From a virus (lineage: Duplodnaviria > Heunggongvirae > Uroviricota > Caudoviricetes), in IMG/VR virus record IMGVR_UViG_3300014208_000030, positions 104,076 through 168,075 of that record: DNA of 64,000 bases, one strand, 5' to 3'. Below, piece by piece: positions 1 to 52,302 of the stretch. Position numbers and translations under genes: made by a program. How positions within the stretch are numbered: the stretch's first letter is position 1; every line of letters begins with the position of its first letter. The notes beneath the pieces are model-generated. The model saw nothing but the letters and a program-made list of their open reading frames with translations, searched no databases and was not told where the DNA came from.

Positions 1-178
1 GGAAATTGATACAAATCAATGAGTTATGTAAAGAGCATCATAAGCCTATAAGAATCAATAACTTACAGGCACGGCAATAAATGCGCATAAAATCAGATAC
101 TTACAAGGCGCAAAATTACTGGCTACCAGCATAACACAAAAACCAGAAAAGCAAGCATTTTTATTTCAAAATAAAAAA

Positions 179-208
179 TTGACAATTAATAAAAAAGCCT
201 GATATGCT
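179..208 (+). promoter_or_regulatory. sigma70-like early promoter (TTGACA-18nt-TATGCT)
   Basis: TTGACA 179-184, 18-nt spacer, TATGCT 203-208; followed by leader aggaaccgcagaaATG similar to the conserved early-cassette leader. Confidence 0.45.
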
Positions 209-247
209 TTACCCAGACCAAAAAACAAATTAATAGGAACCGCAGAA

Positions 248-370
248 ATGAAAAACTCAAAAGTCAAGCTTATTAACAAGCAAGAAAAAATTGTTTCTTA
301 TATAGATATCAAGAATCTACCTAGACAAAAGATGATAGAGTTTTTAAGCTTGGGATATAGATTCGAATAA
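248..370 (+). CDS. small hypothetical early protein (40 aa; not in the supplied track, below its size cut-off)
   Basis: ATG 248 preceded by aggaacc SD-like leader; open to TAA 368-370; sits behind a sigma70-like promoter. Confidence 0.35.
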   Translation: MKNSKVKLINKQEKIVSYIDIKNLPRQKMIEFLSLGYRFE

Positions 371-390
371 TTCTTATTTTAAAATAAGAA

Positions 391-428
391 TTGACTTCAA
401 CGGGTTCACTTTGATATATTGAACCCGT
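391..428 (+). promoter_or_regulatory. early promoter cassette (PeSL-like): TTGACT-18-TATATT with 9-bp inverted repeat flanking the -10
   Basis: TTGACT 391-396, TATATT 415-420; acgggttca (400-408) / tgaacccgt (420-428) inverted repeat; conserved leader accaaaaaccac...aaaagg..ATG. Confidence 0.65.
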
Positions 429-468
429 ACCAAAAACCACTAATTAAACCACGTTAAAAGGGACCGTC

Positions 469-660
469 ATGCAAAACGAATATACACAATCCGAATTACT
501 GGCCTTATGGGATGCTTTAGGGGATATAGCTATTGATGATGATGAATGTATTGAAAGTGATTTTATTCATTTTGAGGCTGGTACTGATAGGTATATTATA
601 TGGCATTGGTTCGATGAAAAATATTCGTTAGGTGTTGCTCACTTACAAGGCTTATTTTAA
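469..660 (+). CDS. hypothetical early protein (63 aa)
   Basis: ORF directly downstream of early promoter cassette with SD aaaaggg 8 nt before ATG. Confidence 0.5.
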   Translation: MQNEYTQSELLALWDALGDIAIDDDECIESDFIHFEAGTDRYIIWHWFDEKYSLGVAHLQGLF

Positions 661-668
661 AATAAGAA

Positions 669-696
669 TTGACGCGGCCTAAAAATTCATTATTAT
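669..696 (+). promoter_or_regulatory. early promoter, variant cassette (TTGACG-16-TATTAT) with gcggc/gccgc inverted repeat
   Basis: TTGACG 669-674, TATTAT 691-696; preceded by palindromic ttattttaaaataaga; leader aaaaggaaaattaaccATG. Confidence 0.55.
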
Positions 697-737
697 AGCC
701 GCTCACCACAAAACAAAATTTAAAAGGAAAATTAACC

Positions 738-1247
738 ATGTCAAACATTACTTTTTATTCATTATCCGACTATAACAACGGCGCACTAATTCCATTTACT
801 ATTGAGCTTGACAACATATCAGAGGATGAGTTCAACATTGAAATACAAGAAAATCTAAAGAGAATAACCGAGGAAAAGCACGACGGTGAAGTAAGAGAAG
901 AATTAATTGTATGTGATTATGAGGATATCCCAGAACAGTATGTGAACGAATGGTCACTATCTAGTGAATTTTTTGAATATCAAAGATTAATACAAGATGA
1001 ACAGTTAGAGCCAGAAATGGTGCAAGCTGGCCTATATCTTGGAATACCAATCGAATCAATACAAGATTCATATCAAGGGCAGTTTGATAATGACAAAGAT
1101 TTTGCCTATGACGTGGCTGATTCTATGGGCGCGATAAATGAGAATGCTTCTTGGCCTAATGATTGTATAGACTGGAAAAGCGCTGCACGCGAATTAATGT
1201 GTGACTTCAATGAACACAACGGTTATTATTTTTCTAATAATTATTAA
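738..1247 (+). CDS. hypothetical acidic early protein (169 aa)
   Basis: ORF with SD aaaagga upstream; acidic composition. Confidence 0.55.
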   Translation: MSNITFYSLSDYNNGALIPFTIELDNISEDEFNIEIQENLKRITEEKHDGEVREELIVCDYEDIPEQYVNEWSLSSEFFEYQRLIQDEQLEPEMVQAGLYLGIPIESIQDSYQGQFDNDKDFAYDVADSMGAINENASWPNDCIDWKSAARELMCDFNEHNGYYFSNNY

Positions 1248-1250
1248 TAA

Positions 1251-1279
1251 TTGACACGGCTATAAAAATTCATTATAAT
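1251..1279 (+). promoter_or_regulatory. early promoter, variant cassette (TTGACA-17-TATAAT)
   Basis: TTGACA 1251-1256, TATAAT 1274-1279; near-identical to the 669 cassette incl. hairpin cggctat/ataggccg around -10 and leader aaaaggaaaattgaccATG. Confidence 0.6.
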
Positions 1280-1315
1280 AGGCCGCTTACAAACAATAAT
1301 AATTTAAAAGGAAAA

Positions 1316-1993
1316 TTGACCATGCTACGCTATCATTTAACGCCGTTTTCTGCGAATGCCAAAACGGGCCATATGCCCGTATCAACCTCAAGCGCGTTAA
1401 CGTGCCCACAAGCATGCCCACTAAAAGACAAGGGATGCTATGCAAAGTCTGGGCCGCTTGCTTTACACTGGCAAAAAGTTACCAATGGGGATCGCGGCTT
1501 AACTTTCGATGATTTTTGTACACTGATAAAAAAATTGGCGCGTGGTTCAATCTGGCGTCACAATCAAGCGGGGGACCTATCGGGTTCAAATGATATAATT
1601 GATACTAAAAAACTGGAACAATTAACCCAAGCCAATAAAGGCAAAAAAGGCTTTACATATACACATTATCCAATGAATTGTGAAAACAATATTAATGCGG
1701 TTAAGAATGCCAATAAAAACGGCTTTACAATCAATTTATCAGCCAATAACATTAAAGAAGCTGATACACTGAAAGCCTTGAATATTGCGCCGATTGTCAC
1801 TATCATGCCAATGGATGCAAAAAAAGTGAGCTATACGCCGCAAGGCAATAAAATTGTAATATGCCCAGCTCAAACAAGCGATAAAACCACGTGCAGTAAA
1901 TGCCAATTATGTCAAGTATCAGACCGCGCCTATATAATAGGCTTTTTGGCGCACGGATCAGCAAAAAAACACGTTAACAGTATAGCGGCCTAA
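1316..1993 (+). CDS. hypothetical Cys-rich early protein (225 aa)
   Basis: ORF behind promoter cassette; multiple Cys pairs (CPQACP...C, CSKCQLC). Confidence 0.55.
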   Translation: MTMLRYHLTPFSANAKTGHMPVSTSSALTCPQACPLKDKGCYAKSGPLALHWQKVTNGDRGLTFDDFCTLIKKLARGSIWRHNQAGDLSGSNDIIDTKKLEQLTQANKGKKGFTYTHYPMNCENNINAVKNANKNGFTINLSANNIKEADTLKALNIAPIVTIMPMDAKKVSYTPQGNKIVICPAQTSDKTTCSKCQLCQVSDRAYIIGFLAHGSAKKHVNSIAA

Positions 1994-2002
1994 AATAAAA
2001 GC

Positions 2003-2032
2003 TTGACTTCAACGGTTCTAGTTTGATAGACT
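2003..2032 (+). promoter_or_regulatory. early promoter cassette (PeSL-like), stem variant acggttctagt/actagaaccgt
   Basis: TTGACT 2003-2008; -10 TAGACT 2027-2032 inside hairpin; stem sequence differs from copy at 391 but complementarity is preserved. Confidence 0.6.
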
Positions 2033-2083
2033 AGAACCGTACCAAAAAACCACTTTAACCACGCTTTAAAAGGAACCGCGAAA

Positions 2084-2728
2084 ATGAAAACTCAAAAAGC
2101 CAAAAAAATCACTTTAGCCACTGTTAAAAGCTTTATCCGTAAAAATCAAGGTAAATTGTTTATAAAGACACAATCAAGCTTTTCAGGATATACGGATTGT
2201 GTTGAACAAATAGCGGGCGCAAAATTTGAACCCGCCGTTTTAACATCCGATAATATACAGCATACTATTGGTATTTCCGGCGCGTGGTTCGTGGGTTCGA
2301 GTCGTGATTATTTCAGACCGTTTGAAGACTCATTATATACTGGTATAGAAGTCGTTAATTCTTGCGGCTGTTTTACAATTGCCATTGAAAAGAACCAAAA
2401 AGAGAAGCCTTTTATTAGTTTCTATAGCAATGGAAATGTTATCTATTTTGGCACTAACGATAATAGAACAGGTTCGGAACCATTGACGGAACCATTCAAC
2501 ACGCATATAGAGAAAATAATAAAATCACTTGGGTTAGAAAATCCAGAGGTTGAAGTATTAAACAGACCTTTAATAGATAAAGGCTCAATTGCTGATATCT
2601 ATAACGTGAAACAATCAATTTTAGAGTTTCTCGCAGTCAATCGCATAAAAGACAAAGATAAAAAGAATATAATTGCCGATATTGAGCGCATAGTATATGC
2701 GGCGGTACAGAATGCAAAACAAAAATAA
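2084..2728 (+). CDS. hypothetical early protein (214 aa)
   Basis: ORF behind promoter cassette with conserved leader/SD. Confidence 0.55.
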   Translation: MKTQKAKKITLATVKSFIRKNQGKLFIKTQSSFSGYTDCVEQIAGAKFEPAVLTSDNIQHTIGISGAWFVGSSRDYFRPFEDSLYTGIEVVNSCGCFTIAIEKNQKEKPFISFYSNGNVIYFGTNDNRTGSEPLTEPFNTHIEKIIKSLGLENPEVEVLNRPLIDKGSIADIYNVKQSILEFLAVNRIKDKDKKNIIADIERIVYAAVQNAKQK

Positions 2729-2737
2729 AATAAAAGC

Positions 2738-2766
2738 TTGACTTTTACGGTTCTAGTTTGATATAT
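2738..2766 (+). promoter_or_regulatory. early promoter cassette (PeSL-like)
   Basis: TTGACT 2738-2743, TATATT 2761-2766; hairpin acggttctagt/tagaaccgt. Confidence 0.6.
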
Positions 2767-2816
2767 TAGAACCGTACCAAAAACCACAATCAACCACGTT
2801 AAAAGGAACCGCAAAA

Positions 2817-3011
2817 ATGAAAAACTTAAAATTGATTGAAAACTTTGTTAATGGCAATATCAGCGACGCGAAAAAAGCCGCAAAACGTGTAACCTTTGAA
2901 GCCTTAAAAGAATCATTTACAGAATATGGATTTTCAGATAATAAGGCTCAAGCATCAATGATGTTTTTGAAAAATAAAGGCTCTTTTCAGGATGCTTGCG
3001 ACGCTGAATAA
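2817..3011 (+). CDS. hypothetical early protein (64 aa)
   Basis: ORF behind promoter cassette. Confidence 0.5.
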   Translation: MKNLKLIENFVNGNISDAKKAAKRVTFEALKESFTEYGFSDNKAQASMMFLKNKGSFQDACDAE

Positions 3012-3017
3012 AAAGAC

Positions 3018-3047
3018 TTGACTTCAACGGGTTCACTTTGATATATT
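3018..3047 (+). promoter_or_regulatory. early promoter cassette (PeSL-like)
   Basis: TTGACT 3018-3023, TATATT 3042-3047, hairpin identical to copy at 391. Confidence 0.65.
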
Positions 3048-3094
3048 GAACCCGTACCAAAAAACCACAATCAACCACGTTAAAAGGAACCGTC

Positions 3095-3697
3095 ATGCCT
3101 AGAACAATTACTGAAACTTTTCAAGTTTTCACCATAGCCGAATTATCCGAATCAGCCAAGCAAAAAGCCTATGAAGAATTTTTAGAAAATTGCCTTTTTG
3201 AAGACTGGGCAGAATTCATTATTGCCGACGCCAAAACAATCGGCGCGTTAATCGGCATTAACATAGATAAAGTTTATTTTTCTGGGTTCTCTTCTCAAGG
3301 GGATGGTGCCTGTTTTGAAGGCTCTTATGAGTATAAAAAAGGCTGGAAAAAAGCGCTTAAAGAATACGCGCCAAATTGTAAAGAAGTTCTAGAAATTGCC
3401 CAAGGCTTGCAAGCTTTACAGTCAACAAATTTCTATAAATTGTCGGCTCAAGTAGTTCAGAGCGGCCACTATAACCATTCAGGATGTACAAGTATTGAAG
3501 TAACAGAGAAAGAAACCGGCTATTCTATAGGGGATGATATAGAAGAAGAAATGAAAAGCCTTTTACGTGATTTTATGGATTGGATATATAAGAGCCTTGA
3601 AACTGAATATGAGTATCAGACAAGTGAAAAAGCCTTTTTAGATGATGCCGAAGCAAACGAAAGAGAATACTACGAAAACGGCACCATGTATTTTTAA
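3095..3697 (+). CDS. hypothetical early protein (200 aa)
   Basis: ORF behind promoter cassette. Confidence 0.55.
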   Translation: MPRTITETFQVFTIAELSESAKQKAYEEFLENCLFEDWAEFIIADAKTIGALIGINIDKVYFSGFSSQGDGACFEGSYEYKKGWKKALKEYAPNCKEVLEIAQGLQALQSTNFYKLSAQVVQSGHYNHSGCTSIEVTEKETGYSIGDDIEEEMKSLLRDFMDWIYKSLETEYEYQTSEKAFLDDAEANEREYYENGTMYF

Positions 3698-3703
3698 AAA
3701 AGC

Positions 3704-3733
3704 TTGACTTCAACGGGTTCAGTTTGATGTATT
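3704..3733 (+). promoter_or_regulatory. early promoter cassette (PeSL-like)
   Basis: TTGACT 3704-3709; -10 TGTATT 3728-3733; hairpin acgggttcag/tagaacccgt. Confidence 0.55.
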
Positions 3734-3773
3734 AGAACCCGTACCAAAAACCACGTTAAAAGGAACCGCGAAA

Positions 3774-3980
3774 ATGAATCATTTAAACTATACTGATAAA
3801 GACAATAATAACTTTGTTCTAGTCTTTCATCCTTATGTAAAAGGAAATAGCGCGTGTGCTGGTTGTGCGTTTAAATTCGCTAATAGTTCAGCATGTCAAG
3901 CAGCAAAAACCTGCACGCCGAAAGACAATGACGGGAACCGATTAGTATCGGCAGGTTATGTGTGGAAGCTGGTAGATTAA
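3774..3980 (+). CDS. hypothetical early protein (68 aa, Cys-containing)
   Basis: ORF behind promoter cassette. Confidence 0.5.
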   Translation: MNHLNYTDKDNNNFVLVFHPYVKGNSACAGCAFKFANSSACQAAKTCTPKDNDGNRLVSAGYVWKLVD

Positions 3981-4067
3981 CCCATAAAAATGCATTCTAA
4001 GGCACGAAAACAAAAAACTGATACAATCATAAGCCTAACACCATAAACCACGCATAAAGGAACGAAA

Positions 4068-4277
4068 ATGACCGTTATCTATCAAACTGAAGTGATTAAA
4101 CAGGGAAATGATTTAATCCAAGTGAAAGTCAATTATCAAAAAATTTATTCAGAGTACCAATGCAAAGTCTATGTGAATGGATTAGTGAGAACCCAAGCAA
4201 CATATTATACGCCGGATGAAACCGACGCATTGAGCACGGCAAAAAGAATGCTCTTTGATTATAATCCAGAAAAATAA
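4068..4277 (+). CDS. hypothetical early protein (69 aa)
   Basis: ORF with SD aaagga; only partial cassette upstream. Confidence 0.45.
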   Translation: MTVIYQTEVIKQGNDLIQVKVNYQKIYSEYQCKVYVNGLVRTQATYYTPDETDALSTAKRMLFDYNPEK

Positions 4278-4281
4278 AAGC

Positions 4282-4311
4282 TTGACTTTCGTTAAGGCTC
4301 TTTGATACACT
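4282..4311 (+). promoter_or_regulatory. early promoter cassette (divergent copy)
   Basis: TTGACT 4282-4287, TACACT 4306-4311; conserved leader accaaaaaaccac...aaaggaaccgcgaaaATG. Confidence 0.5.
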
Positions 4312-4352
4312 AGACCCGTACCAAAAAACCACAACCAAAAGGAACCGCGAAA

Positions 4353-4772
4353 ATGTCAAACATAACCATAAGTCTAGCCAGTTTAGTTAAGAACAATAAA
4401 GGATTATTCAAAAGTGAAAAGCAAGCTACGTTCCTATTAAGCATGTGTGATTCTAACCATGAATACTACGCACAGAATTTAGCCGGTAGTACACTTGTCT
4501 ACTTGCTAGATGATAAAGGCATCCTCAAGGTTACTAAAATTACACCTAAAAACAATACAGTGACTTTTGACCGTAACATAAACCCTAATATTGAGATAGG
4601 TAAGAAGTTAAAACGATTAATTAATGCCATTAAGAAAAGTATTGATGAAAGAGAAGCGCAAAAAGATAGCTATAATACGCCAGAACTGTTAGAATTATAT
4701 AATAATTGTGCGGCAATTGAAGCCAAGAACCTTGCAAGCTACGAACAACAATTAAATGAGTTAGAGTTATGA
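4353..4772 (+). CDS. hypothetical early protein (139 aa)
   Basis: ORF behind promoter cassette. Confidence 0.55.
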   Translation: MSNITISLASLVKNNKGLFKSEKQATFLLSMCDSNHEYYAQNLAGSTLVYLLDDKGILKVTKITPKNNTVTFDRNINPNIEIGKKLKRLINAIKKSIDEREAQKDSYNTPELLELYNNCAAIEAKNLASYEQQLNELEL

Positions 4773-4961
4773 TTAGTTATGCATACTGCATTGTTATCCG
4801 CCCTGTTAGACGTTATGAATCTAATCCCAGGGGTACAATATATCACCGATATGCAACATTAGAGCAAGCTAAACAGGACGCCAAAGAGTTAAGCGCTAAT
4901 GATCGCCTAAATGATTACTGGGCAATGTCTGTTAGTGAATTTTAAAAAGGAACCACAAAAA

Positions 4962-5441
4962 ATGAAAATCATACATAATAAATTGTGCTCTTTCGTACAA
5001 GGCAAACCAAGCGAGTCACGCAAAATTAATGAGTGGTGCGCCAATATGAAAAAATTGAATAACGATTTTATGATAATGGTAGATGATAGCGATGATCAGG
5101 AAATAAGCTTGACAATCATAATCAGCCACACTACACAAAAAGAAAGAAGCGAATATGCAGCTAGAGCTAAAGCAATGTTAAAGGAACTCACAAATAAACA
5201 AGAAAAAGAAACCATCAAGCAGATAGAAGAAAGAATTAAAAGTATAAAGTCTATCGCAATACGTACACTAGCATTAACGTTATTAGAAGAAAATAATCTT
5301 GTCGGATTAACATACTATGTGTTAGGCGTATTCAATACCATGTCTAGCCGCAATATTGATGAGTTAACCCTTAATGCAATCATTAAGCTAATGAAAACAC
5401 TAGAGCCATCTAGTACCATATTAAAAAAGCTGAAAACTTGA
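4962..5441 (+). CDS. hypothetical protein (159 aa; start moved to ATG 4962)
   Basis: Internal ATG preceded by aaaaggaaccacaaaaa SD/leader matching other early genes; track start 4911 lacks RBS. Confidence 0.5.
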   Translation: MKIIHNKLCSFVQGKPSESRKINEWCANMKKLNNDFMIMVDDSDDQEISLTIIISHTTQKERSEYAARAKAMLKELTNKQEKETIKQIEERIKSIKSIAIRTLALTLLEENNLVGLTYYVLGVFNTMSSRNIDELTLNAIIKLMKTLEPSSTILKKLKT

Positions 5442-5632
5442 GAATCTAACAGGCAAAAAATGCCTTACATGCCACGTATATTCTCAAGGTATATGATGGC
5501 ATGGCTTTTCTGAATACGTGGCATAGTGAGCCTTATATGATGTTACCAAATAGCATAAAAATGGATGTTATAATATAACATTGCAAAAATTCTGCTATGG
5601 TGTAAAAGTAGGGTTTCTGGCCTTTTATGAAC

Positions 5633-5672
5633 ATATGCCCGTATATGCCCGTATATGCCCGTATATGCCCGT
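5633..5672. repeat. tandem 10-bp repeat ATATGCCCGT x4, followed by atgccc/gggcat hairpin
   Basis: four perfect head-to-tail copies read directly. Confidence 0.9.
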
Positions 5673-5833
5673 AAGGGCATGCTTGCGCCCACGCACATTC
5701 CCAAGGTTTTGTCAACATTTTCCCAAAAACCCGCCAACATTTTCCCAAAATCTACCAATTTTCCACCAAAATCCACTCCAAAGAACCCTCAAAACACATT
5801 TCTAACCATTTGTCAAGGAGTTTTCCCAAAAAC

Positions 5834-5912
5834 CCACTTTTCATAAGTCTTTGATTCTGTTCAACAAAAGTAACTTTTTACCTAATAGGTTTTTTGAAAT
5901 ATTAGCTTGACA
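5834..5912. repeat. ~78-bp direct repeat copy 1 (ccacttttcataagt...cctaataggttttttga)
   Basis: near-identical second copy at 6103-6180. Confidence 0.85.
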
Positions 5913-6102
5913 AAAGCGCGGGAATATGCCTCAAAAACTACCTGTTTGCCATATGTGACACATTATTTTTGCTAAAAGCTTGACAATTGTCTCAAAATCT
6001 GCCTAAGAACCAATTTTTGCATCGCGTGTGTAGTTCTTGAGCATGTTTTTGGTTGTTTGTCAAGCATATTAGCAAGAAATATGGCCTAGGTTACCAAAAA
6101 AG

Positions 6103-6180
6103 CCACTTTTCATAAGTGATTGATTATAAACGATAAAAGTTACTTTTTACCTAATAGGTTTTTTGATATTTTGCTTGTCT
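6103..6180. repeat. ~78-bp direct repeat copy 2
   Basis: matches 5834-5912 with a few substitutions. Confidence 0.85.
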
Positions 6181-6227
6181 TATTTGTAGTTTTGTGTTAT
6201 ACTATTCTGTTAACAAATTTCTAAAAT

Positions 6228-6608
6228 ATGGGAGTATCAATGGCTAAACAAGATTATACAAAATCAAGATGTTACATAGACGGGAGAAGCAACCACAAAA
6301 ATTATGCCATATACATATCAATGATAGCAAGGTGCTACAACAAAGACTGCAAACAATACAAGAACTATGGATGGCGTGGGATAAGGATATGTGACAGCTG
6401 GTTAAATGATTTTTGGGAGTTTGTCAAGGATATGGGAGAAAAGCCATACAAAATGACCTTAGATAGAATAGATAACGATGGCAATTACTGCCCAAGCAAT
6501 TGCAAATGGAGTACACAAAAGGAGCAAGCAAACAACACGAGAACGACTAGCAAAACGAGTGCAAGAAACAGATATAGGCGGCTATTCCCGCAAGTTAAGT
6601 TCAAATGA
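6228..6608 (+). CDS. small basic protein with HNH_3-type homing-endonuclease-associated motif (LDRIDNDGNYCPSNCKWST); catalytic His pair not evident
   Basis: Motif YKNYGWRGI..C..W....F...MG.......LDRIDNDGNY.P.NC.W.T..EQ is common in free-standing phage HNH-family genes; embedded in repeat-rich non-coding DNA. Confidence 0.5.
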   Translation: MGVSMAKQDYTKSRCYIDGRSNHKNYAIYISMIARCYNKDCKQYKNYGWRGIRICDSWLNDFWEFVKDMGEKPYKMTLDRIDNDGNYCPSNCKWSTQKEQANNTRTTSKTSARNRYRRLFPQVKFK

Positions 6609-6609
6609 A

Positions 6610-6870
6610 ATATTAGCTTGACAACCTACTGGCAATATGCTTGCCAGTGATTATTAAGAAAATGCTTGACAAATAGCTTGGGAAATGCTTGAGAATCTGT
6701 TTAGACTAGGCGGGATGCTTGGCAGGTGTTTAGCAAAAAGCTTGCCAAAATGATTTGTCAAGTAATATTTTGAAGCAGGTTGATGCATAGTTTTTATTGT
6801 TTGTCAAGTAGTTTTCGCTTGGGTTATTTGCGGGGAGTGGTTCGAAAAAGCTTGACAAAGTGAGAAAAAA
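6610..6870. repeat. cluster of ~12 GCTTGnnA (mostly GCTTGACA) motifs in both orientations
   Basis: gcttgaca/gcttgcca/gcttggga/gcttgaga/tgtcaagt copies counted by eye in a 260-bp non-coding stretch; more copies at 5906, 5980, 6055. Confidence 0.7.
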
Positions 6871-7037
6871 CAGTATAGGGAGCTTGGATGGAGCGCGTCA
6901 GCGCGAGCCCTAGCTCACGCCAGTCTATCTGTTTGAAAAATTTTTCCGACCAAATATTCTGGCACCAAAAACCATTCCTGTAAAGTCACTTCCAAAATTT
7001 TTTTCTCCAGGATATTCCATACCAAATTTTCAACCCT

Positions 7038-8849
7038 TCAGTATCCCACAGCCTCTTCAAAAGTGCAACCAAAATTATTCCATGACTGTATCTCCAATCG
7101 CATGGTATCCAGCCGCTCAAAATTTGCCATAATATATTCCATATCAGACTCAAAAAATGGTGTAATCTCACCAGTGGTTTCACAGACAGTATATGGCATG
7201 TGATTTCGCTTCTCCCAATTCTTTCCTTTCAATGTCGGGCGAAAATTTGTATAATGATTAAGTGCAAGCACTTGCTCTATAGTCGTCGCGCAAGATACCG
7301 GAAAATAATGATCATAATGCCAGTCTCCTTGATTGTGCCAACCAATACCATCAGTGAATTGACTCTCAATAAACTCATAAAATACTTCCATAGAGCAGCC
7401 CAATATGGCTTCCGTCTTTTCTGTTTTTGGGTGTCCCGTTCGTCTGATACCGGAACTTATTAGTGATCGAACTCGTGTGGTGAACATAGCAACCGGATCA
7501 GATCGTCGTCGCTGGCGCTCTCTAGCATACTTGCGTTTCCTTGCTTCTGGTGATAGGTTTTTATTATTTTCTCTGGCAGTTTCCTTAGCCTCCTGTCGCT
7601 TCTTATCGGCATGCTCGGCGAGTTCATCTGGAGTCATTCCGAGTAGTGGGTTTCTGCAAATTGGACATTTGCCTCCGGCAATATGTGATGCTGGCATCTG
7701 CTCGAACTCTCCATGTACTTTACATACGATAATGACTTTAGCTGTCGCTTTGATTACCACAGACTTCGAGTAGTCATATAACTCTCCATGTTGTGCTGTG
7801 GCTCGCTTGATGAACTCGCCTTGGCTCATCGTCCGTGATGCTAGGGCACACTTTGGGCAGTTTGATCCGGATGAGTGTGCGGAAGCGGTTTGGTTAAACT
7901 CACCGTGTATTTTGCATATGATGGTAATCTGCTGCCCAATAGCTACGTAATCTACTTTTGAGTAATCGTACCGATCGCCATGCGTCAGTTGCGATCGCCT
8001 AATAAACTCTTCACATGCTATTGTCTGTAGCGACATTGAGCAAGCCGCACAACCCTTACCTCGGATATGCGCATTTGCTCGTTGACTGAACTCACCATGA
8101 TCCGGACAAATTATTATTACGTTGGCCTGAGTGTGTTTGTAGTCTACTTTAGAATAATCATATCGGTCGCCGTGCACCTCCTTTGAGCGTGCAATGAAAT
8201 CTTCGTGTGAGAGTTTATTTGGCGGCTCGATCCCAGCGCCGATCCGGCTACCTTCCTTGGCGCACTCGCTACACCCAGCACCTTTGGTGTGGTTTGATGG
8301 TCTCTGCGAAAATACACCATGCGTTTTGCATATGATCTTCACCGGTGTATTGGCATCTACATACACAACATTAGAATAATCGTATCGATCGCCATGCTTT
8401 TTGGTCACTCTCTTAATGAATTCTTCGGTTGATATTGGCTGCACTCTCTTGCAATTTTCTCTTGCGCACTTGCTACACCCAGAACTCTTTATGTGCCCAT
8501 ACATAAGCTGCGAAAAGGCCCCATGCACTTTGCATATAATGGTTACTGGCGTTTTAGCGTCAACGTAATCAACTTGCGAGTAATCGAAGCGATCACCATG
8601 TACGGCAATGGCCTTCTGTACCATAGTTTCCGTCTTCTGCTTCGGTTGTTTCGGCGTGGGTGTCTTCTGTGGCACCTTCGGTACATATCTATAATACCCA
8701 GCAACCTTTTCGCTATTATTTGCGATCCATTCGGTACTATAGGCTTTGGCGCATGTTTTGCACTTATTAGAAATGCCACTTTTCATAGATGGCTGTTTAT
8801 AATACTCACCCAATGACTTCTCAATACCGCATGCTTTACATTTCTTCAT
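7038..8849 (-). CDS. HNH endonuclease with six tandem ~47-aa Cys/His repeat modules (start moved to MKKCKACG)
   Basis: C-terminal DWHYDHYFPVS...NHYTNFRPTLKGKNWEKRNH = HNH motif; six repeats of F..R...HGDRYDYS.V.Y......V.IICK.HG.F.Q....H..G.GC..C. Confidence 0.75.
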   Translation of the reverse strand: MKKCKACGIEKSLGEYYKQPSMKSGISNKCKTCAKAYSTEWIANNSEKVAGYYRYVPKVPQKTPTPKQPKQKTETMVQKAIAVHGDRFDYSQVDYVDAKTPVTIICKVHGAFSQLMYGHIKSSGCSKCARENCKRVQPISTEEFIKRVTKKHGDRYDYSNVVYVDANTPVKIICKTHGVFSQRPSNHTKGAGCSECAKEGSRIGAGIEPPNKLSHEDFIARSKEVHGDRYDYSKVDYKHTQANVIIICPDHGEFSQRANAHIRGKGCAACSMSLQTIACEEFIRRSQLTHGDRYDYSKVDYVAIGQQITIICKIHGEFNQTASAHSSGSNCPKCALASRTMSQGEFIKRATAQHGELYDYSKSVVIKATAKVIIVCKVHGEFEQMPASHIAGGKCPICRNPLLGMTPDELAEHADKKRQEAKETARENNKNLSPEARKRKYARERQRRRSDPVAMFTTRVRSLISSGIRRTGHPKTEKTEAILGCSMEVFYEFIESQFTDGIGWHNQGDWHYDHYFPVSCATTIEQVLALNHYTNFRPTLKGKNWEKRNHMPYTVCETTGEITPFFESDMEYIMANFERLDTMRLEIQSWNNFGCTFEEAVGY

Positions 8850-8891
8850 AATTTCTATTGTTATTTTAAAACAAGACTTCCGCCACATTTA

Positions 8892-9970: not shown

Positions 9971-10783
9971 TTAAATCGCAAATGTCGTTGAGCTAAACCC
10001 AGCCGCATTCTTGTGGCCTCCACCTCCAAACTCCAGCGCTATCTTGGATACATCGAAATCTTCTATAGAGCGCAGAGAGTACAGCCATAAATTACTTGCT
10101 CCATCGAAGCAATAGGTAGCGCCAAATGTCCCAGATTCTTTGGCAAGGACATTGCCAAGTTCAGATGAATATTTTGGCGGAACATTGCAGGCCAGTCCTT
10201 CTATACCGGAAAGAGTTATTTTATGACTGTTCTTGGCAAATCCTTCAATGTCCTGATTGAAAACTTGAAGTAGATCACGCCCTCTATCAGCCAGTTCATT
10301 TGCACCTAATTCACCTAAATTAAAACTCCACGACTCAAACTCCATTGGAATAAATGCTCTCAATGCAGCAGTAAATGCTTTCGTATTATCATGCTTAAAG
10401 AGCCACAAATCACGATCTTGAATAAGCTCAAGACCAACAGGGCAAGGATAGGAGTGAAAATACTCCCAAGCCATTATTGCGCCCGATCTACTCATATCGA
10501 AGATGGCATAATCTAGTCCATCCAAATCTTCCTGAGCAGACTTGTGATGATCCAGAACCAGCAATGACTTAGCACTGGCTTTCATTTCTTCAAGAACGGC
10601 TCTCTTGTAGCTGAAATCGAGTATATATACATCCCTGCCAGTAACAATAGGAGGTGAAATACCATATTGTACGGGAATGTATTCGGCAGAATCACCAAAC
10701 TTTACCCATGCTGCATAGGCGGCTCCAAATCCGTCTAGGCAGTTAGCATGGTATAACACTAAAATATTTTTATTTGCTTTCAT
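9971..10783 (-). CDS. DHH-family phosphoesterase (DHH + DHHA1; NrnA/nanoRNase-like)
   Basis: Motifs HANCLDGFGAA (I), ILDFSY (II), VLDHHK (DHH, III), GGGGHKNAAGF (DHHA1 GGGH); track start is TTG, ATG at 10783. Confidence 0.75.
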   Translation of the reverse strand: MKANKNILVLYHANCLDGFGAAYAAWVKFGDSAEYIPVQYGISPPIVTGRDVYILDFSYKRAVLEEMKASAKSLLVLDHHKSAQEDLDGLDYAIFDMSRSGAIMAWEYFHSYPCPVGLELIQDRDLWLFKHDNTKAFTAALRAFIPMEFESWSFNLGELGANELADRGRDLLQVFNQDIEGFAKNSHKITLSGIEGLACNVPPKYSSELGNVLAKESGTFGATYCFDGASNLWLYSLRSIEDFDVSKIALEFGGGGHKNAAGFSSTTFAI

Positions 10784-10784
10784 T

Positions 10785-11171
10785 TTATTTCTCAATGATC
10801 TTGCGGCCGTGGGTTAAGTTAAAAAATTTTTTGGTTGCTGGTATCCATTCTCGCCAAGTGTCTGCCCAAGGACTTCTTATGGTGAACAGCCACGTCACGC
10901 CGGTAGAATCCACTTTATGAAAATCGGTGCGGCGGGTGATGAACGGGCGAAATGGTTTATATTGCCTTACCTTACCATTAATCATGTGCTCTGTCAAGCT
11001 GCCTTTGATGATGAACGACCAACAATTGAAGGCGTGGGTGTGATAGGCTTGGCGGCTGTTCCCGTCAAACTTGAGCAGGGCAATGGAGAATAAGGATTTA
11101 CTCTCGATGAGCCAATAACCGGTGACGGTGGATTCGGCACCGCCGTCTTTGCCTTTGAATAATAATTTCAT
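10785..11171 (-). CDS. hypothetical protein (start moved to MKLLFKG)
   Basis: ATG 11171 follows the stop of the upstream gene by 1 nt. Confidence 0.45.
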   Translation of the reverse strand: MKLLFKGKDGGAESTVTGYWLIESKSLFSIALLKFDGNSRQAYHTHAFNCWSFIIKGSLTEHMINGKVRQYKPFRPFITRRTDFHKVDSTGVTWLFTIRSPWADTWREWIPATKKFFNLTHGRKIIEK

Positions 11172-19892: not shown

Positions 19893-20573
19893 TTAATCCA
19901 AAAATCCTACAGTCGGCGGGATATCATCCGCATATTCTAACTCATCTGACTGCGTAATGTCAATCATTTGTTTCAATTCTTCTGCTGCGATATGTTTCTT
20001 CAGGGCAATTTCTTCCGCTAGCGCTTCATGCTTTGCCTGCATTTTCGCATCATATTCCTCGTATTCATTACCGGACATCTCTTGTAAAATGCCTTTCAAC
20101 TCTTCTGTAAAGTTTTCGGTGTCATGTTCCTGTATATCGACAAACACATCCCAGCTCTGGGCAATATACTTCTGTTTTCGGTACATGACTCGCTTTTCTA
20201 TGCCAATGCGCTTAACAAAGGCTTGACAAATAATTTGCGTAAGGTAGCCGAAGGCACCCGCAGTCTTTTTGCCAGTCCGTTTGGATATGGTGTTTTCATC
20301 GTAATTGTGAAAATAGCGGAAGGCTATTTCGATGCCATCGCTGATCATTTCGTCTTTGAAACTGTAGTTGACAAAGCTTGGCATGTTGGAGGATTTTTGT
20401 GCAATGAGGATGATGCATTCGCCTAGATAGTTCGACATCTGAGGCTTTGGGAGTCCATTAGCCTTACTATCGTTGTATTGGCGCACATACTCCGTTGCTT
20501 CTAGGTTGAGCTTTACTTTGTCTACATAATAACGCTTTTTCTGATCGGTTGGTGTAGTATTGTCCGTCGGCAT
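19893..20573 (-). CDS. 55: late-transcription sigma factor, T4 gp55 homolog
   Basis: Recalled alignment to T4 gp55: LGECIILIAQ...SFKDEMISDGIEIAFRYFHNYDEN...ICQAFVKRIGIEKR vs T4 IGLAIMLIAE...[24 protein letters not shown]...CFNAFVQRIKKERK; RBS gaaggaacag upstream. Confidence 0.7.
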   Translation of the reverse strand: MPTDNTTPTDQKKRYYVDKVKLNLEATEYVRQYNDSKANGLPKPQMSNYLGECIILIAQKSSNMPSFVNYSFKDEMISDGIEIAFRYFHNYDENTISKRTGKKTAGAFGYLTQIICQAFVKRIGIEKRVMYRKQKYIAQSWDVFVDIQEHDTENFTEELKGILQEMSGNEYEEYDAKMQAKHEALAEEIALKKHIAAEELKQMIDITQSDELEYADDIPPTVGFLD

Positions 20574-22859: not shown

Positions 22860-22896
22860 GTTTTAAAATAAGAAGGGTATCGTGACGATACCCTTC
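22860..22896 (-). terminator. rho-independent terminator (11-bp stem gaagggtatcg/cgatacccttc, loop tga, U-tract)
   Basis: perfect hairpin 22872-22896; followed on - strand by cttatttt then the ligase RBS gaggga. Confidence 0.7.
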
Positions 22897-22905
22897 TATG
22901 GTTAC

Positions 22906-23241: not shown

Positions 23242-23534
23242 AGATTCTCCTAACAATGGAAGCAATTTGTGTGGGTTCTTTTAATATCCCAAAATAACCA
23301 AAAAAGGTCGATTGACAAAAGATACTGCTGACCAGTATCGTACGAGGCGCATTGGACTATCTGCTATGTCGCAGTCCGCAAGGGTAGCGCGGTGTTTAAG
23401 GTGACCCAAAATAATGGCTCCTTCATCCAAAAACTATTCCCAATATCTTTCTTTAGCGTGTGCCCTCTGTCGTTCAGTACCGCTGCTGTAACTGAAATGA
23501 TAGTATATCAGCTTTACCATATTGTGTCAATGTG

Positions 23535-27724: not shown

Positions 27725-30160
27725 CTATTTTAAATTGTAGCTTATGACTTTATAATCGAATTGATCTTTTGCATAATATCCTACTCGTTTCTCGAAATGG
27801 TCTAGGGTATGATTTTTGTAAGATTTATACGACATATCGTCCGCCAAATCGAACAGGTTACAAACATATTTCCCATTCCCCTTTCGCAGACCACGCCCAA
27901 CTGACTGCAAAACTTTTATCTTGCTCTTGTATGGTGATGCAAAAATAATATTGTCAATCCGCTTGATCGAAACACCGGTAGAAAATGTGCCATATGATGC
28001 AACTATCGTACAGTCATCTGTAGTCTCGGCAATCTGCCTAACAGCATCTCTGGACTCAACATCAACCTTGCCATGTATAAAGTGACAGTTACCAGCATCT
28101 TTTAGCAAATTGTAGATAGGCAGACCCTGCTTCCCGACGAATGTGAACAGTATTAGCGTATTACCTTTCAGAGAGTTCGCCAATCCGGCAATGAAGGCAT
28201 TTCTGCGCTCACTGGTGCATAGATAATCCATTTCTTGAGCATACGTAGCCTTGCTCCGAGCCATTGCCTTAGCAACTTCCTCGCGGTGCTTAATCAGGAT
28301 GCAGCTGATCTTCAGATTAGCGGCCTGACCGTTATCAATCAGTTCTCTGGTAGTTATAGTCTTAAATGCTTTCCCAAACAAACCCTCGATGACCAACCGG
28401 TTACATTTGCTGTCCTGCAAACTTCCGGTGAACCCGACTCGATAGGCGACATTGTGAGCCCTCTCCATAATATCGGTAATTGACTTAGATTTTGCAGTGT
28501 GGCAATTGCCTACTACAACAACAAAACCTTTTCTACGGACAATAATATTCCCAGACGGCACAGTAACGCAATGCACATTACCAGAATATTGGACGCGCTC
28601 TTTTTGCATCCCTTGCGTCCCTATGATATTGGTCTTCCGGATATATAATCTATGCACATCGGAAAACTTATCGCTCCTGCTATCTATCTGAATAGTTTTT
28701 CTTGCTATATATCCCGCTAGTACAGCAACGGTCTGATAAAAATCAACCGAGCACTCGGATGTGTTCGAATAGTAGTATCGATTCTCGCTGGATATGCTGC
28801 CATCCCAAATAACCATATACTCTATGATTTCTTTCGCCGTTTCGCTAGATAGTGTTGATACGTCAAAAAATGTAGATACATCCTTTGTCGCATAATCAAT
28901 ATTATATATACTAAACCGACGTTTTTCTTTGGTTTTCCCGTATGCTGGTATACTCTTCAGCTCATTATATGAAAACCCACCCTCAGCCATCAGTGCTAGG
29001 AACTCAGTTATTTTTCTTTCTTTAGAAAACTTAAACTGTAATACTTGTTTTCCGCCATCCCGACCAACAATACATCCGTCTGCTTGGAGTGCAATCATAA
29101 GCTTTTGTTTTGGTGTAAGTGGTCCAGAATCGCCTACGGCAAGCCCAGCCCCATATAGATTACATAAGGCATTAAAATTAACTTCTGCCGCAGTTACTTT
29201 TTTGTCAACATAGCCGTGCTTCTGTGTTCGCCTAATTAGCATATCATGGTTTGGAGTTACTAAAAGGTCTATTCTACTATCACTACTTATATGTACTAGC
29301 TCACCATCATAGTGCTTAGTGATATATCTAAGTGGCTTAACGAATGATATATTACCACAATCGTACTGAGCAACATCCGCAACCTCGCTCAATTCATCGA
29401 ATCGAACAAATCCTCTGTTTGTCAATATTTCTGTATCTGGAGAGAAGCACTCATCCTGAACAATCATATCGAACTGCTCATAATATGAGATTGGCATTTT
29501 TGCCATCGATTGGTAGGTAGTGAAGGTCAGTTGCTTATCGGTCTGCTTCTCCTGCCCAGAGTAGATCATGTGGCTTCTACCCTCAACATCCCATCCGCTT
29601 ACGCTAGAATAGTCAATGAAATCGGACTTCATTTGCGCCACCAGACCGACGGTTGGGAATATCAATAATACACGCTTCACTTCACCGATAGCTATCAGAT
29701 ATCTGATTGTGCTAAAGATAATCAGAGATTTCCCCGACGAAGTGGGGCTCTCGATGGTCGCCCTACGGTTGTCTAGAATATGTTTTATGGCGTCGACTTG
29801 GTAGTCATATACTGTGATAGGGTTTCCGGCAGAGTGCAACCGAAGAACATCGGCAATGTATTTTTCGATGATGGCTCTATCGTTGTCCACGACAGGATGT
29901 ACATCCTCATCATACTCTACTGTATAGCCAGCCTGCGCAGCGAATTCGAGAATGTGATAGAACAGGCCAGCATAAATGTTGCGAGTACCGGCGTTGAGGA
30001 GCCTGATTGTGCCATTCCACAACCCATGCTTATATGCCGGTGTAAACTTTGCACCTTCAACATCAAACGTGAAATGCGCAGCCATTTCGACAATAACACA
30101 TTTCTCGGCATCAATGTGCACATATACTTCGTTAAGTTTTCGAATTCGGATATCAGCCAT
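27725..30160 (-). CDS. uvsW: UvsW-like DExH (SF2) DNA helicase interrupted by an in-frame intein
   Basis: Walker A SPTSSGKS; extein blocks recalled to match T4 UvsW (KCNRLVIEGLFGKAFKTITTRELIDNGQAANLKI, TIVASYGTFSTGVSIKRI, VLQSVGRGLRK); motif II reads IVQDE|C...N|CHTAKS. Confidence 0.9.
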   Translation of the reverse strand: MADIRIRKLNEVYVHIDAEKCVIVEMAAHFTFDVEGAKFTPAYKHGLWNGTIRLLNAGTRNIYAGLFYHILEFAAQAGYTVEYDEDVHPVVDNDRAIIEKYIADVLRLHSAGNPITVYDYQVDAIKHILDNRRATIESPTSSGKSLIIFSTIRYLIAIGEVKRVLLIFPTVGLVAQMKSDFIDYSSVSGWDVEGRSHMIYSGQEKQTDKQLTFTTYQSMAKMPISYYEQFDMIVQDECFSPDTEILTNRGFVRFDELSEVADVAQYDCGNISFVKPLRYITKHYDGELVHISSDSRIDLLVTPNHDMLIRRTQKHGYVDKKVTAAEVNFNALCNLYGAGLAVGDSGPLTPKQKLMIALQADGCIVGRDGGKQVLQFKFSKERKITEFLALMAEGGFSYNELKSIPAYGKTKEKRRFSIYNIDYATKDVSTFFDVSTLSSETAKEIIEYMVIWDGSISSENRYYYSNTSECSVDFYQTVAVLAGYIARKTIQIDSRSDKFSDVHRLYIRKTNIIGTQGMQKERVQYSGNVHCVTVPSGNIIVRRKGFVVVVGNCHTAKSKSITDIMERAHNVAYRVGFTGSLQDSKCNRLVIEGLFGKAFKTITTRELIDNGQAANLKISCILIKHREEVAKAMARSKATYAQEMDYLCTSERRNAFIAGLANSLKGNTLILFTFVGKQGLPIYNLLKDAGNCHFIHGKVDVESRDAVRQIAETTDDCTIVASYGTFSTGVSIKRIDNIIFASPYKSKIKVLQSVGRGLRKGNGKYVCNLFDLADDMSYKSYKNHTLDHFEKRVGYYAKDQFDYKVISYNLK
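28505..29449 (-). mobile_element. intein (~315 aa) with LAGLIDADG-like homing endonuclease domain, inserted in helicase motif II (DE^CH)
   Basis: starts CFSPDTEILTNRGFV, ends ...GFVVVVGN followed by extein Cys; internal LYGAGLAVGDSG LAGLIDADG-like motif; extein junction rebuilds DECH. Confidence 0.8.
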
Positions 30161-41634: not shown

Positions 41635-41662
41635 TTGACATATACGTAAAAGTACGTATAAT
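41635..41662 (+). promoter_or_regulatory. sigma70 promoter TTGACA-16-TATAAT with 8-bp inverted repeat (tatacgta/tacgtata) in the spacer
   Basis: perfect consensus hexamers. Confidence 0.6.
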
Positions 41663-41706
41663 TTACCACTCTAACAACAACAACAAAACGGATAAAATAA
41701 CAACAT

Positions 41707-44468: not shown

Positions 44469-44478
44469 CCAACCAAAA

Positions 44479-44505
44479 AGAGCCCGTTACGGGCTCTTTT
44501 CTTTT
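44479..44505 (+). terminator. rho-independent terminator (8-bp stem agagcccg/cgggctct, loop tta, U-tract)
   Basis: perfect hairpin followed by ttttctttt. Confidence 0.8.
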
Positions 44506-50606: not shown

Positions 50607-50680
50607 GCGGGTATAGCAAAACGGTTATGCAACTGGCTTCCACCCAGTTCACGGGAGTTCGACCCTCCCTACCCGCTCCA
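50607..50680 (+). tRNA. tRNA-Gly (anticodon TCC)
   Basis: hand-folded cloverleaf: acceptor gcgggta/tacccgc, anticodon stem actgg/ccagt loop cTTCCAc, T-arm gggag-ttcgacc-ctccc, 3' CCA encoded. Confidence 0.8.
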
Positions 50681-50702
50681 AATAACATAGGGAAGCATAA
50701 TA

Positions 50703-50936
50703 ATGGCAGTAGAAGTGAGAGTATTTGAACCTGATCCGGCACACATCTGCATTAGGAATGCTGGGAAGTGGTCACTGAGTATGAATCCAAATATGTTTGG
50801 TCGCGTAACTCATATTAGATATTTGAATGAGTTTGAGTGTGACCTCATCAATGGAGCAATAAAAGCCGCGCAGCGTGCAATGGATATAGCATCTGGAGTA
50901 CCTTCTGAAGCTGATCCTAACCGGATAGATAATTAA
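50703..50936 (+). CDS. hypothetical small protein between tRNA genes (77 aa)
   Basis: ORF only. Confidence 0.3.
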   Translation: MAVEVRVFEPDPAHICIRNAGKWSLSMNPNMFGRVTHIRYLNEFECDLINGAIKAAQRAMDIASGVPSEADPNRIDN

Positions 50937-50945
50937 AAAGTTTTT

Positions 50946-51021
50946 GCGCCAGTAGCTCAATGGTAGAGCGTTCCCCTCATAAGGGATTGGTTTTTGGTTC
51001 GAATCCAAACTCGGCGCACCA
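50946..51021 (+). tRNA. tRNA-Met/Ile2-like (anticodon CAT), acceptor stem with one bulged C
   Basis: D-arm gctc-aatggta-gagc, anticodon loop cuCAUaa, T-arm tttgg-ttcgaat-ccaaa, CCA encoded; acceptor gcgccag pairs with ct(c)ggcgc only if one C is bulged. Confidence 0.55.
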
Positions 51022-51027
51022 AATAAT

Positions 51028-51101
51028 AAGTCATTAGCTCAACGATAGAGCGGCTAGGTGCACTAGTAGATGGTGGGTTTAACTCCCATCATGGCTTGCC
51101 A
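51028..51101 (+). tRNA. tRNA-like element (anticodon arm unresolved)
   Basis: acceptor aagtcat/atggctt + g + CCA, D-arm gctc-aacgata-gagc, T-arm-like gtggg-tttaact-cccat; central region ctaggtgcactag is palindromic and gives no canonical 7-nt loop. Confidence 0.35.
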
Positions 51102-51960: not shown

Positions 51961-51979
51961 TATATAATGAGGCAGTGAA

Positions 51980-52168: not shown

Positions 52169-52177
52169 AAATAAAGC

Positions 52178-52205
52178 TTGACAAGATGTAAAAAGTGTGT
52201 ATAAT
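52178..52205 (+). promoter_or_regulatory. sigma70 promoter aaagcTTGACA-16-TATAAT
   Basis: perfect hexamers upstream of tRNA-Ser. Confidence 0.65.
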
Positions 52206-52291: not shown

Positions 52292-52302
52292 AAAGTAGAT
52301 AT

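Follow-up and report, generated by a model that had tools for sequence, protein, structure and literature searches.

The first kilobases of a 64,000-nt stretch of DNA from an uncultured phage (Caudoviricetes; IMG/VR record IMGVR_UViG_3300014208_000030, positions 104,076 to 168,075), called the window in the following, hold small genes that alternate with copies of a regulatory cassette. In this cassette a sigma70-type promoter is combined with a stem-loop, in many copies around the -10 box. A metagenomic contig of 168 kb (ENA ERZ27249449 k141_1325849) ends with the window, and two stretches of this contig upstream of the window, L001 and L008, were examined together with it. The first 5.4 kb of the window consist of small plus-strand genes in a row, with a G+C content of 35% compared to about 42% elsewhere. 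This block of small plus-strand genes goes on in the upstream 7-8 kb (L001, L008). Its genes include an ArdA-like anti-restriction gene, a DUF7227 gene, a Y05D gene and several ORFans.

Between 371 and 4352 each gap from a stop codon to the next ATG is occupied entirely by one unit of 74-90 nt. A unit opens with an A-rich tract and TTGACT; 18 nt later come TG-n-TAnnnT and a stretch that contains GC, then ACCAAAAA(A)CCAC and AAAAGGAACCG, and after a few further bases the ATG. The tract ahead of the -35 box reads TAAAATAAAAGC or TTAAAATAAGAA, and the stop codon of the upstream gene lies 3-20 nt before TTGAC. The Shine-Dalgarno arrangement AAAAGGAACCG-N3-6-ATG was found in all unit copies. Copies of this form start on the plus strand at 391, 2003, 2738, 3018, 3704 and 4282, with a looser copy at 179. 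A second variant, TTGAC[GA]-16/17-TAT[TA]AT, is located at 669 and 1251. Furthermore, L001 and L008 contain seven TTGACN-16-TATAAT promoters that are followed by a CA-rich leader as in the window copies; over about 7 kb upstream of the window, too, one unit lies between each pair of neighbouring genes of the block. Altogether 16 units are present within about 11 kb of small plus-strand genes, the majority of which belong to no family.

Repeated sigma70-type units with a conserved leader had been described for positions 380 to 4352 in an earlier note on this DNA, which was made from the sequence alone. This description was borne out by plus-strand copies from 179 to 4282; the range was too narrow, as the family also occurs upstream of 380 and outside the window. 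The second variant was found at both positions given in the note. At least six copies of TTGACT-N18-TATATT had been counted as well. This is exact for 391, 2738 and 3018, whereas the other copies have TAGACT, TGTATT or TACACT.

All 16 plus-strand sites fit TTGACN-16/17/18-TAnnnT, several of them with TG at -15/-14, as a match to the consensus only. The stricter pattern with an extended -10 box, TTGACN-N15-19-TGNTANNNT, occurs six times in the 64-kb window, always between 179 and 4311. The corresponding number for shuffled sequences was 0.87, and none of 100 shuffles reached six. The units appear to be sigma70-type early promoters, and we infer their activity and start site from the consensus.

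Stem-loops around the -10 box

Each of the 16 promoter sites was scored for the longest perfect inverted repeat with a loop overlapping the -10 box. As control, the spacer and the downstream flank were shuffled 500 times with the -10 box held fixed. Perfect stems of 8-11 bp bracket the -10 box in seven of the 16 early promoters, each with P<=0.006 and with DNA folding z-scores of -3.5 to -7. Five of these strong stems lie in the window and two in L001 (Table 1). Three moderate stems were found in addition, at about 3100 in L001 and at 669 and 1251 in the window; the latter two form 4-5 perfect pairs, or seven with a bulge, and have z-scores of about -2. The loops comprise 7-18 nt, and the 3' arm ends 6-16 nt past the -10 box (6-9 nt in the window copies). 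The earlier note had reported a 9-11-bp inverted repeat in each copy. Five window copies indeed have a perfect stem, of 8-11 bp, but the stems at 669 and 1251 are weak and 4282 has none.

In a census of 71.9 kb, 44 perfect hairpins with 8 bp or more were counted, compared to about 20 in shuffled sequences. Seven of the 44 are concentrated in about 640 nt of early promoter sequence. A chance origin of the units and their stems is ruled out by the motif counts, the stem shuffles and this hairpin census.

In the ACGG family of stems, three of the nine stem positions are changed on both sides between two stem types, and the pairing is kept. The covariation score of this family was reached by none of the 500 shuffles, and slid registers drop to 22-41% paired positions. 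Thus, the previous statement that the stem sequence differs while pairing is maintained was confirmed. Since the copies are paralogous, the covariation represents at most one or two evolutionary events. A stronger argument for selection on structure is provided by four unrelated stem sequences that occupy one position relative to the -10 box in the window and L001.

These stems also bear on the question whether the inverted repeat is an operator to which a dimeric regulator of the phage or host binds, for example a factor that shuts off the early promoters. The palindrome overlaps the -10 box and the start site, which is a classical position for a repressor, and the outer ACGG/CCGT is invariant within the ACGG family. 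However, the stems of different promoters (TTGAGTGCCT, GGTTGGTAGG, AGAGTCTG, ACGGGTTCA and GCGGCCTA) share no half-site. Hence, a sequence-specific operator is unlikely. The spacing of the arms varies from 7 to 18 nt, and the changes within the stems are paired. We consider the operator explanation as largely refuted and attach very little weight to it. The view of the earlier note, that selection acts on the structure rather than on a protein-binding sequence, is upheld by the four unrelated stems.

Table 1 Cassettes and further features of the window and of the upstream stretch L001 (positions refer to the window unless L001 is given; stems as 5' arm/3' arm)
Position	Strand	Feature	-35, spacer and -10	Stem-loop	Leader and start codon
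L001, about 1029-1056	+	Strong stem		TTGAGTGCCT/AGGCACTCAA, 10 bp	
L001, about 3100	+	Moderate stem		AGAGTCTG/CAGGCTCT, 8 pairs including one T.G	
L001, about 5002-5041	+	Strong stem		GGTTGGTAGG/CCTACCAACC, 10 bp	
158..247	+	First unit of the block in the window	TTGACA-18-TGaTATGCT (179-208)	AT-rich hairpin TTTTTATTtcaaAATAAAAA (158-177) abutting -35; stem at the -10 region just 5 bp	CA-rich leader, Shine-Dalgarno, ATG 248
369..468	+	Full cassette, strong stem	TTGACT (391-396), TG-extended TATATT (415-420)	ACGGGTTCA/TGAACCCGT, 9 bp (400-428), -10 inside 11-nt loop; upstream AT palindrome AATTCTTATTttaaAATAAGAATT (369-392)	ACCAAAAACCAC...AAAAGGGACCG, ATG 469
661..737	+	Second-variant cassette	TTGACG-16-TATTAT (669-696)	GCGGC(C)TA/TAGCCGC (674-702), one bulged C, -10 in loop	ATG 738 of ArdA-like gene
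1248..1321	+	Second-variant cassette	TTGACA-17-TATAAT (1251-1279)	CGGCTAT/ATA(G)GCCG (1257-1285), bulge on the opposite arm from copy 669	ATG 1322 of DUF7227 gene
1994..2083	+	Cassette, strong stem	TTGACT-18-TAGACT (2003-2032)	ACGGTTCTAGT/ACTAGAACCGT, 11 bp (2012-2040); two non-consensus -10 bases add two pairs	ATG 2084
2729..2816	+	Cassette, strong stem	TTGACT-18-TATATT (2738-2767)	TACGGTTCTA/TAGAACCGTA, 10 bp (2746-2776)	ATG 2817
3012..3094	+	Cassette, strong stem	TTGACT-18-TATATT (3018-3047)	ACGGGTTCA/TGAACCCGT, 9 bp (3027-3055)	ATG 3095
3698..3773	+	Hybrid-stem cassette, strong stem	TTGACT-18-TGTATT (3704-3733)	ACGGGTTC/GAACCCGT, 8 bp (3713-3742)	Shortened leader, ATG 3774
4040..4067	+	Leader and ribosome-binding module alone, without promoter or stem			ACCATAAACCACGCATAAAGGAAC...ATG
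4278..4352	+	Degenerate cassette	TTGACT-18-TACACT (4282-4311)	3' arm alone left (TAGACCCGT, 4311-4319); unrelated sequence in place of 5' arm	Leader and Shine-Dalgarno intact, ATG 4353 of T4 Y05D-family gene
19893-20573		gp55-like late sigma factor			
23312..23339	-	Terminator-like hairpin outside the cassette family		GATACTGgtcagCAGTATC then TTTTGTCAAT	
41635..41706	+	Separate sigma70-like promoter	TTGACA-16-TATAAT	TATACGTA/TACGTATA, 8 bp, AT-rich (41641-41660), in spacer, overlapping the first -10 bases	CA-rich leader, ATG 41707
54581-55606		gp32-like single-stranded DNA-binding protein			

Possible function of the stem-loops

Repeated units with promoter and stem-loop are known as promoter-early stem-loops (PeSLs) from the coliphages RB49 and phi1 (Arbiol, Comeau, Kutateladze, Adamia, Krisch 2010, PMC2839356). 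We consider it probable that the cassettes are PeSL-type composite regulatory units of an uncultured T4-like myovirus. This reading is supported by a geometry identical to that of the RB49 PeSLs overlapping the -10 box and by the T4-type markers in the window. On the same two grounds, the previous assignment to sigma70 early cassettes of the PeSL kind was retained.

Each unit would provide a strong promoter for host sigma70, preceded by an A-rich tract resembling an UP element and followed by a standard CA-rich leader free of structure and by a Shine-Dalgarno sequence. The form of the promoter would be TTGACN-16-TATAAT, or TTGACT-18 with a TG-extended -10 box. As the arms use the two sequence-free stretches of the promoter, spacer and discriminator, the -10 box is forced into the loop. 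Transcription is expected to start about 7 nt after the -10 box, and the 3' arm would end at this point or slightly beyond it. RNA started locally would be made without the 5' arm, so its leader would stay unstructured. In RNA reading through from an upstream promoter, the hairpin would be complete and would follow the preceding stop codon at a distance of about 20 nt. On such read-through RNA the hairpin may act as attenuator or insulator and as stabiliser of the 3' end, and each small gene would then be a transcription unit of its own; we rate the chances of this at about even or slightly lower. All seven strong stems lie directly behind an upstream plus-strand gene, and two of the six stemless promoters (179 in the window, 321 in L001) are the first promoter of a block. 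Both observations fit the read-through model. The predicted RNA stabilities of the cassette stems are -11 to -17 kcal/mol.

Several results weigh against this interpretation. Six of the 16 early promoters, including 4282 with its 3' arm alone, were without convincing stem in the scoring of perfect repeats. None of the cassette hairpins has a T-rich tail and none was called in the terminator scan; the sequence after the stems is ACCAAAAACC or ACCACAAACC. Canonical terminators with A-tract, GC-stem and T-tract are present elsewhere, at 44476-44500, 55675-55707 and 22871-22897 and at 6039-6076 of L001. Because the cassettes have no T-tail while the phage has canonical terminators at other sites, classical intrinsic termination at the cassettes is unlikely, and canonical rho-independent terminators were ruled out. 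An attenuator or insulator role was proposed for the RB49 PeSLs and tested once, on a stem of the other (spacer) subclass, which is the sole RB49 stem examined experimentally (PMC2839356). Moreover, the three independent assemblies compared, namely the ENA contig, the window and a JGI contig (3300037810 Ga0376277_0000688), do not differ across the block save by one 10-nt and one 8-nt repeat unit, and shuffling is thus not directly visible in them. Finally, the sense strand is not consistently favoured by the folding energies, and hence a role at the RNA level and one at the DNA level are not told apart. The strand asymmetry calculated from G.U versus A.C pairs amounts to a summed difference of -6 kcal/mol, which is driven by one site and uninformative.

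At the DNA level, the hairpin could be a structural part of the promoter. Extrusion on the negatively supercoiled injected DNA would expose the -10 box as single-stranded loop DNA or break the -35/-10 geometry, and in both cases the strength of the early promoters would depend on the supercoiling of the template and act as its sensor. The -10 box always lies within an AT-rich loop, the arms flank the stretch melted by RNA polymerase, and the missing strand asymmetry agrees with this as well. However, the promoters are already near the sigma70 consensus, several of them TG-extended, and need no help. Stems of 8-11 bp with loops of 7-18 nt extrude poorly as cruciforms, the loops being long for this purpose. 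In addition, some stems of RB49 and of this phage lie entirely within the spacer or are located upstream of the -35 box; thus, exposure of the -10 box is not general. We regard this explanation as clearly unlikely. For a -10 hairpin that is a functional DNA structure, either as a supercoiling switch of the early promoters or as a structure-specific recombination signal of an integron-style cassette array, the probability seems to be very low, although the constant position of unrelated stems and the half-hairpin chimeras are compatible with both versions.

Possible recombination between cassettes

The identical cores of 30-46 nt could serve as substrates for homologous recombination between cassettes. 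Copies 391 and 3018, which are 2.6 kb apart, share an identical core of 46 nt from TTGACT through ACCAAAAA, long enough for recombination. In copy 3704 the 5' arm resembles that of 391 and 3018, and the edge of the loop and the start of the 3' arm resemble 2003 and 2738. This hybrid, the half-hairpin copies 4282 and L001 4045 (3' arm alone) and the bulges of 669 and 1251 look like the products of crossovers within the loop, which is suggestive. By analogy, the recombinational shuffling suggested in the earlier note appears plausible to us. We infer both the role at the RNA level and the recombination.

The same copies could indicate that the palindromes are mainly recombination features at the DNA level, or by-products of recombination. 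Compensatory changes would then arise by hairpin-templated repair or loop crossover, and an effect on expression would be incidental. The chimeric and partial copies agree with this, as do the reciprocal one-base bulges of 669 and 1251, where a swap of the arms would make both stems perfect. The stem stability is without strand asymmetry, and for RB49 mini-circles crossovers were mapped to the loop (PMC2839356). Two short Logan contigs from other samples, 100% identical, break exactly inside cassettes, though this is expected of any repeat. On the other hand, four unrelated stems at the same -10 position imply a positional constraint linked to the promoter, beyond recombination alone. No rearrangement was detected across the three assemblies, and stems and loops of these lengths are poor at cruciform extrusion. 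We consider recombination as the main cause unlikely and prefer the reading as PeSL-type regulatory units.

The two repeat units by which the assemblies differ belong to tandem repeats outside the cassettes. Repeat ATATGCCCGT at 5633-5672 has four copies in the window versus three in the ENA contig, the sole difference over 13.7 kb. For the 8-nt repeat AAATCTCA at about 6630-6665 of L001, about 250 nt before the window, the JGI contig has one unit more than the ENA contig. This repeat sits in a non-coding stretch of about 700 nt with many short direct repeats ('aatcaata..'), which separates two early blocks.

Relatives of the cassettes were searched by DNA pattern; two scans of IMG/VR and a third one, of JGI metagenomes, gave no matches. 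The loci of relatives of three proteins encoded in or near the early region all belonged to unrelated phages and contained no cassette.

Phage and genome context

No nucleotide match for the phage was found among 50,697 phage records with megablast and blastn. The proteins that were checked have at most 34-44% identity to cultured phages, and their best matches are in cyanomyoviruses, Methylophilales and Pelagibacter myoviruses, and Vibrio and Bacillus phages. As T4-type markers we identified UvsW with the T4 N-terminal domain, a gp48-like baseplate protein, an RNA ligase, DsbA and the Y05D-family gene, besides the late sigma factor and the single-stranded DNA-binding protein listed in Table 1. 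According to this gene content, the phage appears to be an uncultured, distantly T4-like myovirus. From the markers, it can reasonably be assumed that, as in T4, early genes are transcribed with host sigma70 and late genes with a phage sigma factor.

The UvsW-like helicase (27725-30160, minus strand, 811 aa) matches T4-type UvsW in two pieces over 62% of its length; the implied insert of about 300 aa has weak similarity to SWI2/SNF2. A DHH phosphoesterase (9971-10795, minus strand) has homologues with 57% identity in a Methylomonas genome and with 45% in a metagenome-assembled genome of Methylobacter. For a tail protein, the nearer relatives include Methylophilales phages. These relatives are hints of a methylotroph or methanotroph as possible host. 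The early block is adjoined by a gene for an HNH-type endonuclease of 616 aa with repeated DUF723/treble-clef modules (7038-8888, minus strand). This protein, for which no homologue was obtained from IMG/VR, is probably a mobile homing endonuclease.

Other promoters, terminators and repeats

Two sites outside the block had been mentioned in the earlier note as recurrences of the same design. At 41635 a sigma70-like promoter with a hairpin in the spacer is indeed present, but its 8-bp stem does not enclose the -10 box. The TTGACA element with a 7-bp inverted repeat at 23311-23336 was rejected as a promoter. The element had been read on the wrong strand: its reverse complement is a terminator-like hairpin, with the stem in GATACTGgtcagCAGTATC and TTTTGTCAAT directly after it, within a minus-strand transcription unit. 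This hairpin (23339-23312) and a strong minus-strand promoter-like sequence TTGACA-17-TGaTATACT (23530-23502) bound a unit of about 185 nt. For the unit (23312-23530), the fold z-score is just -0.9 and no Rfam match was obtained. As it contains no convincing open reading frame, it is a candidate small RNA. Among the Rfam covariance models, tRNAs alone reached the gathering threshold; for positions 1-7000 nothing with E<=1 was found save one match at chance level. The cassette hairpins thus correspond to no Rfam family.

Ten CTTGACAA boxes are distributed on both strands over about 1 kb at 5810-6858, and the whole window contains 18 compared to 2.8 expected. The region 5810-6858 is mostly non-coding and lies between the plus-strand early block and a minus-strand block. 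Many of the boxes are followed by ATATGC about 12-14 nt later, too close for a sigma70 -10 box. They could be divergent middle-type promoters, an array of binding sites or an origin.

The AT-rich palindrome (AAT)TCTTATTttaaAATAAGA(ATT) occurs at 369-392, 650-665 and 52982-53001; two of the three copies abut the -35 box of an early promoter. Promoters at 50313 and 52178 have the upstream motif TGAAAATAAAGCTTGACA in common and precede the tRNA gene cluster (50607-54513). The promoter at 50313 has a 6-bp AT stem within its spacer. Furthermore, TTGAC promoters with short spacer stems, for example ACACTgttAGTGT, were noticed at 3188 and 3465 of stretch L003 from an unrelated phage with 60% G+C (IMG/VR UViG_3300033232_000011). 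Promoter-embedded stem-loops may be widespread outside the T4-like phages.

Comparison with known systems

A PeSL comprises an A/T-rich tract that includes the stop codon of the upstream gene, -35 and -10 boxes of the sigma70 consensus, a stem-loop, a Shine-Dalgarno sequence and a start codon. The stem-loop is found at five positions, namely upstream, over the -35 box, in the spacer, over the -10 box or before +1; in RB49 and phi1 positions between the two boxes or over the -10 box are the commonest. The RB49 and phi1 PeSLs are repeated intergenic units, clustered among small orphan early genes, and their promoter activity was demonstrated. One RB49 stem-loop (PeSL211/210) matched rrnB T1 in lowering the expression of a downstream lacZ. 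Crossovers between RB49 PeSLs, some of them mapped to the loop, produce indels and mini-circles (PMC2839356).

We scanned 100 kb of RB49 with the promoter-plus-hairpin script used for the cassettes and obtained two main classes. In the spacer class, which includes the tested PeSL211/210, AGGGGATC...GATCCCCT is followed by TATACT. The other class, with about ten sites such as TTGACG..ATGGGAGTAgTATTATACTCCCATaccaaacg and TTGACGtaaagaaATGGGAGTAgTATTATACTCCCATaccaaacgaaagaaggagaatcacATG, has stems that bracket the -10 box, and GGGGGTA/TACCCCC was found as a compensated stem variant. The 3' arm of this class starts at the last T of the -10 box, likewise in copies 391 and 3018 of the window. It ends 6-8 nt past the -10 box, compared to 8-9 nt in the ACGG family. 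Arms in spacer and discriminator, a CA-rich leader and the absence of a T-tract are common to the RB49 class and the cassettes described here. Both phages have one unit per intergenic gap among small early ORFans as well as compensated stem variants. The RNA stems of RB49 reach -12 to -14 kcal/mol, comparable to the -11 to -17 kcal/mol given above. In general, all features that define a PeSL at the level of the sequence are present in the cassettes. The spacer stem at 41641-41660 also corresponds to a PeSL subclass, that with the stem between -35 and -10.

Differences to RB49 were observed, too. No sequence homology was detected (no BLAST match) and the stems differ. The loops are longer (7-18 nt) than in RB49 (6-12 nt), and part of the family has an 18-nt spacer with a TG-extended -10 box, unlike RB49. 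The G(n)-loop-C(n) spacer subclass of RB49, which was tested as terminator, is rare here. Host and lineage are very distant from RB49. Whereas the RB49 PeSLs are backed by promoter, terminator and mini-circle experiments, the present cassettes are known from sequence alone.

In T4/PST and KVP40/nt-1, PeSLs with the stem just upstream of the promoter flank variable small genes (Comeau, Arbiol, Krisch 2014, PMC4122927). This layout is resembled by AT-rich palindromes of the window that adjoin the -35 box (158-177, 369-392, 650-665). In contrast to the T4 and KVP40 PeSLs, the dominant stems bracket the -10 box, and the promoter consensus comes nearer to canonical sigma70 than the sequences quoted for T4 or KVP40 (PMC4122927).

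The units can also be compared to the lambdoid morons (promoter-gene-terminator), which likewise are small self-contained expression units inserted between genes. The terminator of a moron is canonical and a separate element, and morons are not flanked by a conserved repeat. In the units of this phage, by contrast, promoter and hairpin are fused and repeated with identical cores of 30-46 nt.

In phage N4, too, the genes expressed first have promoters on which a DNA hairpin is centred. The cassettes might accordingly be hairpin promoters of the N4 type, read by a phage RNA polymerase delivered with the virion, with a coincidental resemblance to sigma70. A hairpin at the promoter of the earliest genes is what such promoters would have. 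N4 hairpin promoters consist of a 5-7 bp stem and a 3-nt loop, whereas stems of 8-11 bp and loops of 7-18 nt were found in this phage. Small hairpins, the absence of sigma70 boxes and a giant virion RNA polymerase characterise N4, and none of these was seen in the window: the matches of -35 box, spacer and extended -10 box are near perfect and the largest open reading frame has 811 aa. The T4-like genes of the phage, among them one for a late sigma factor of the gp55 type, speak against N4-type promoters as well. The probability of N4-type promoters is practically negligible.

The cassettes belong to an element type that is already described; new is the very distant host genome, and the current understanding is unchanged by the findings. 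They flag a block of anti-defence and host-takeover genes of an unknown phage and could serve as compact, insulated expression units. Four unrelated stems at one promoter position in a single genome argue more clearly for selection on structure than the RB49 data do by themselves. The PeSL design is extended to a very distant uncultured T4-like lineage that has no cassette sequence in common with RB49. As the same layout occurs in so distant a lineage, it is likely to be a convergent or deeply conserved solution and not a quirk of one coliphage group.

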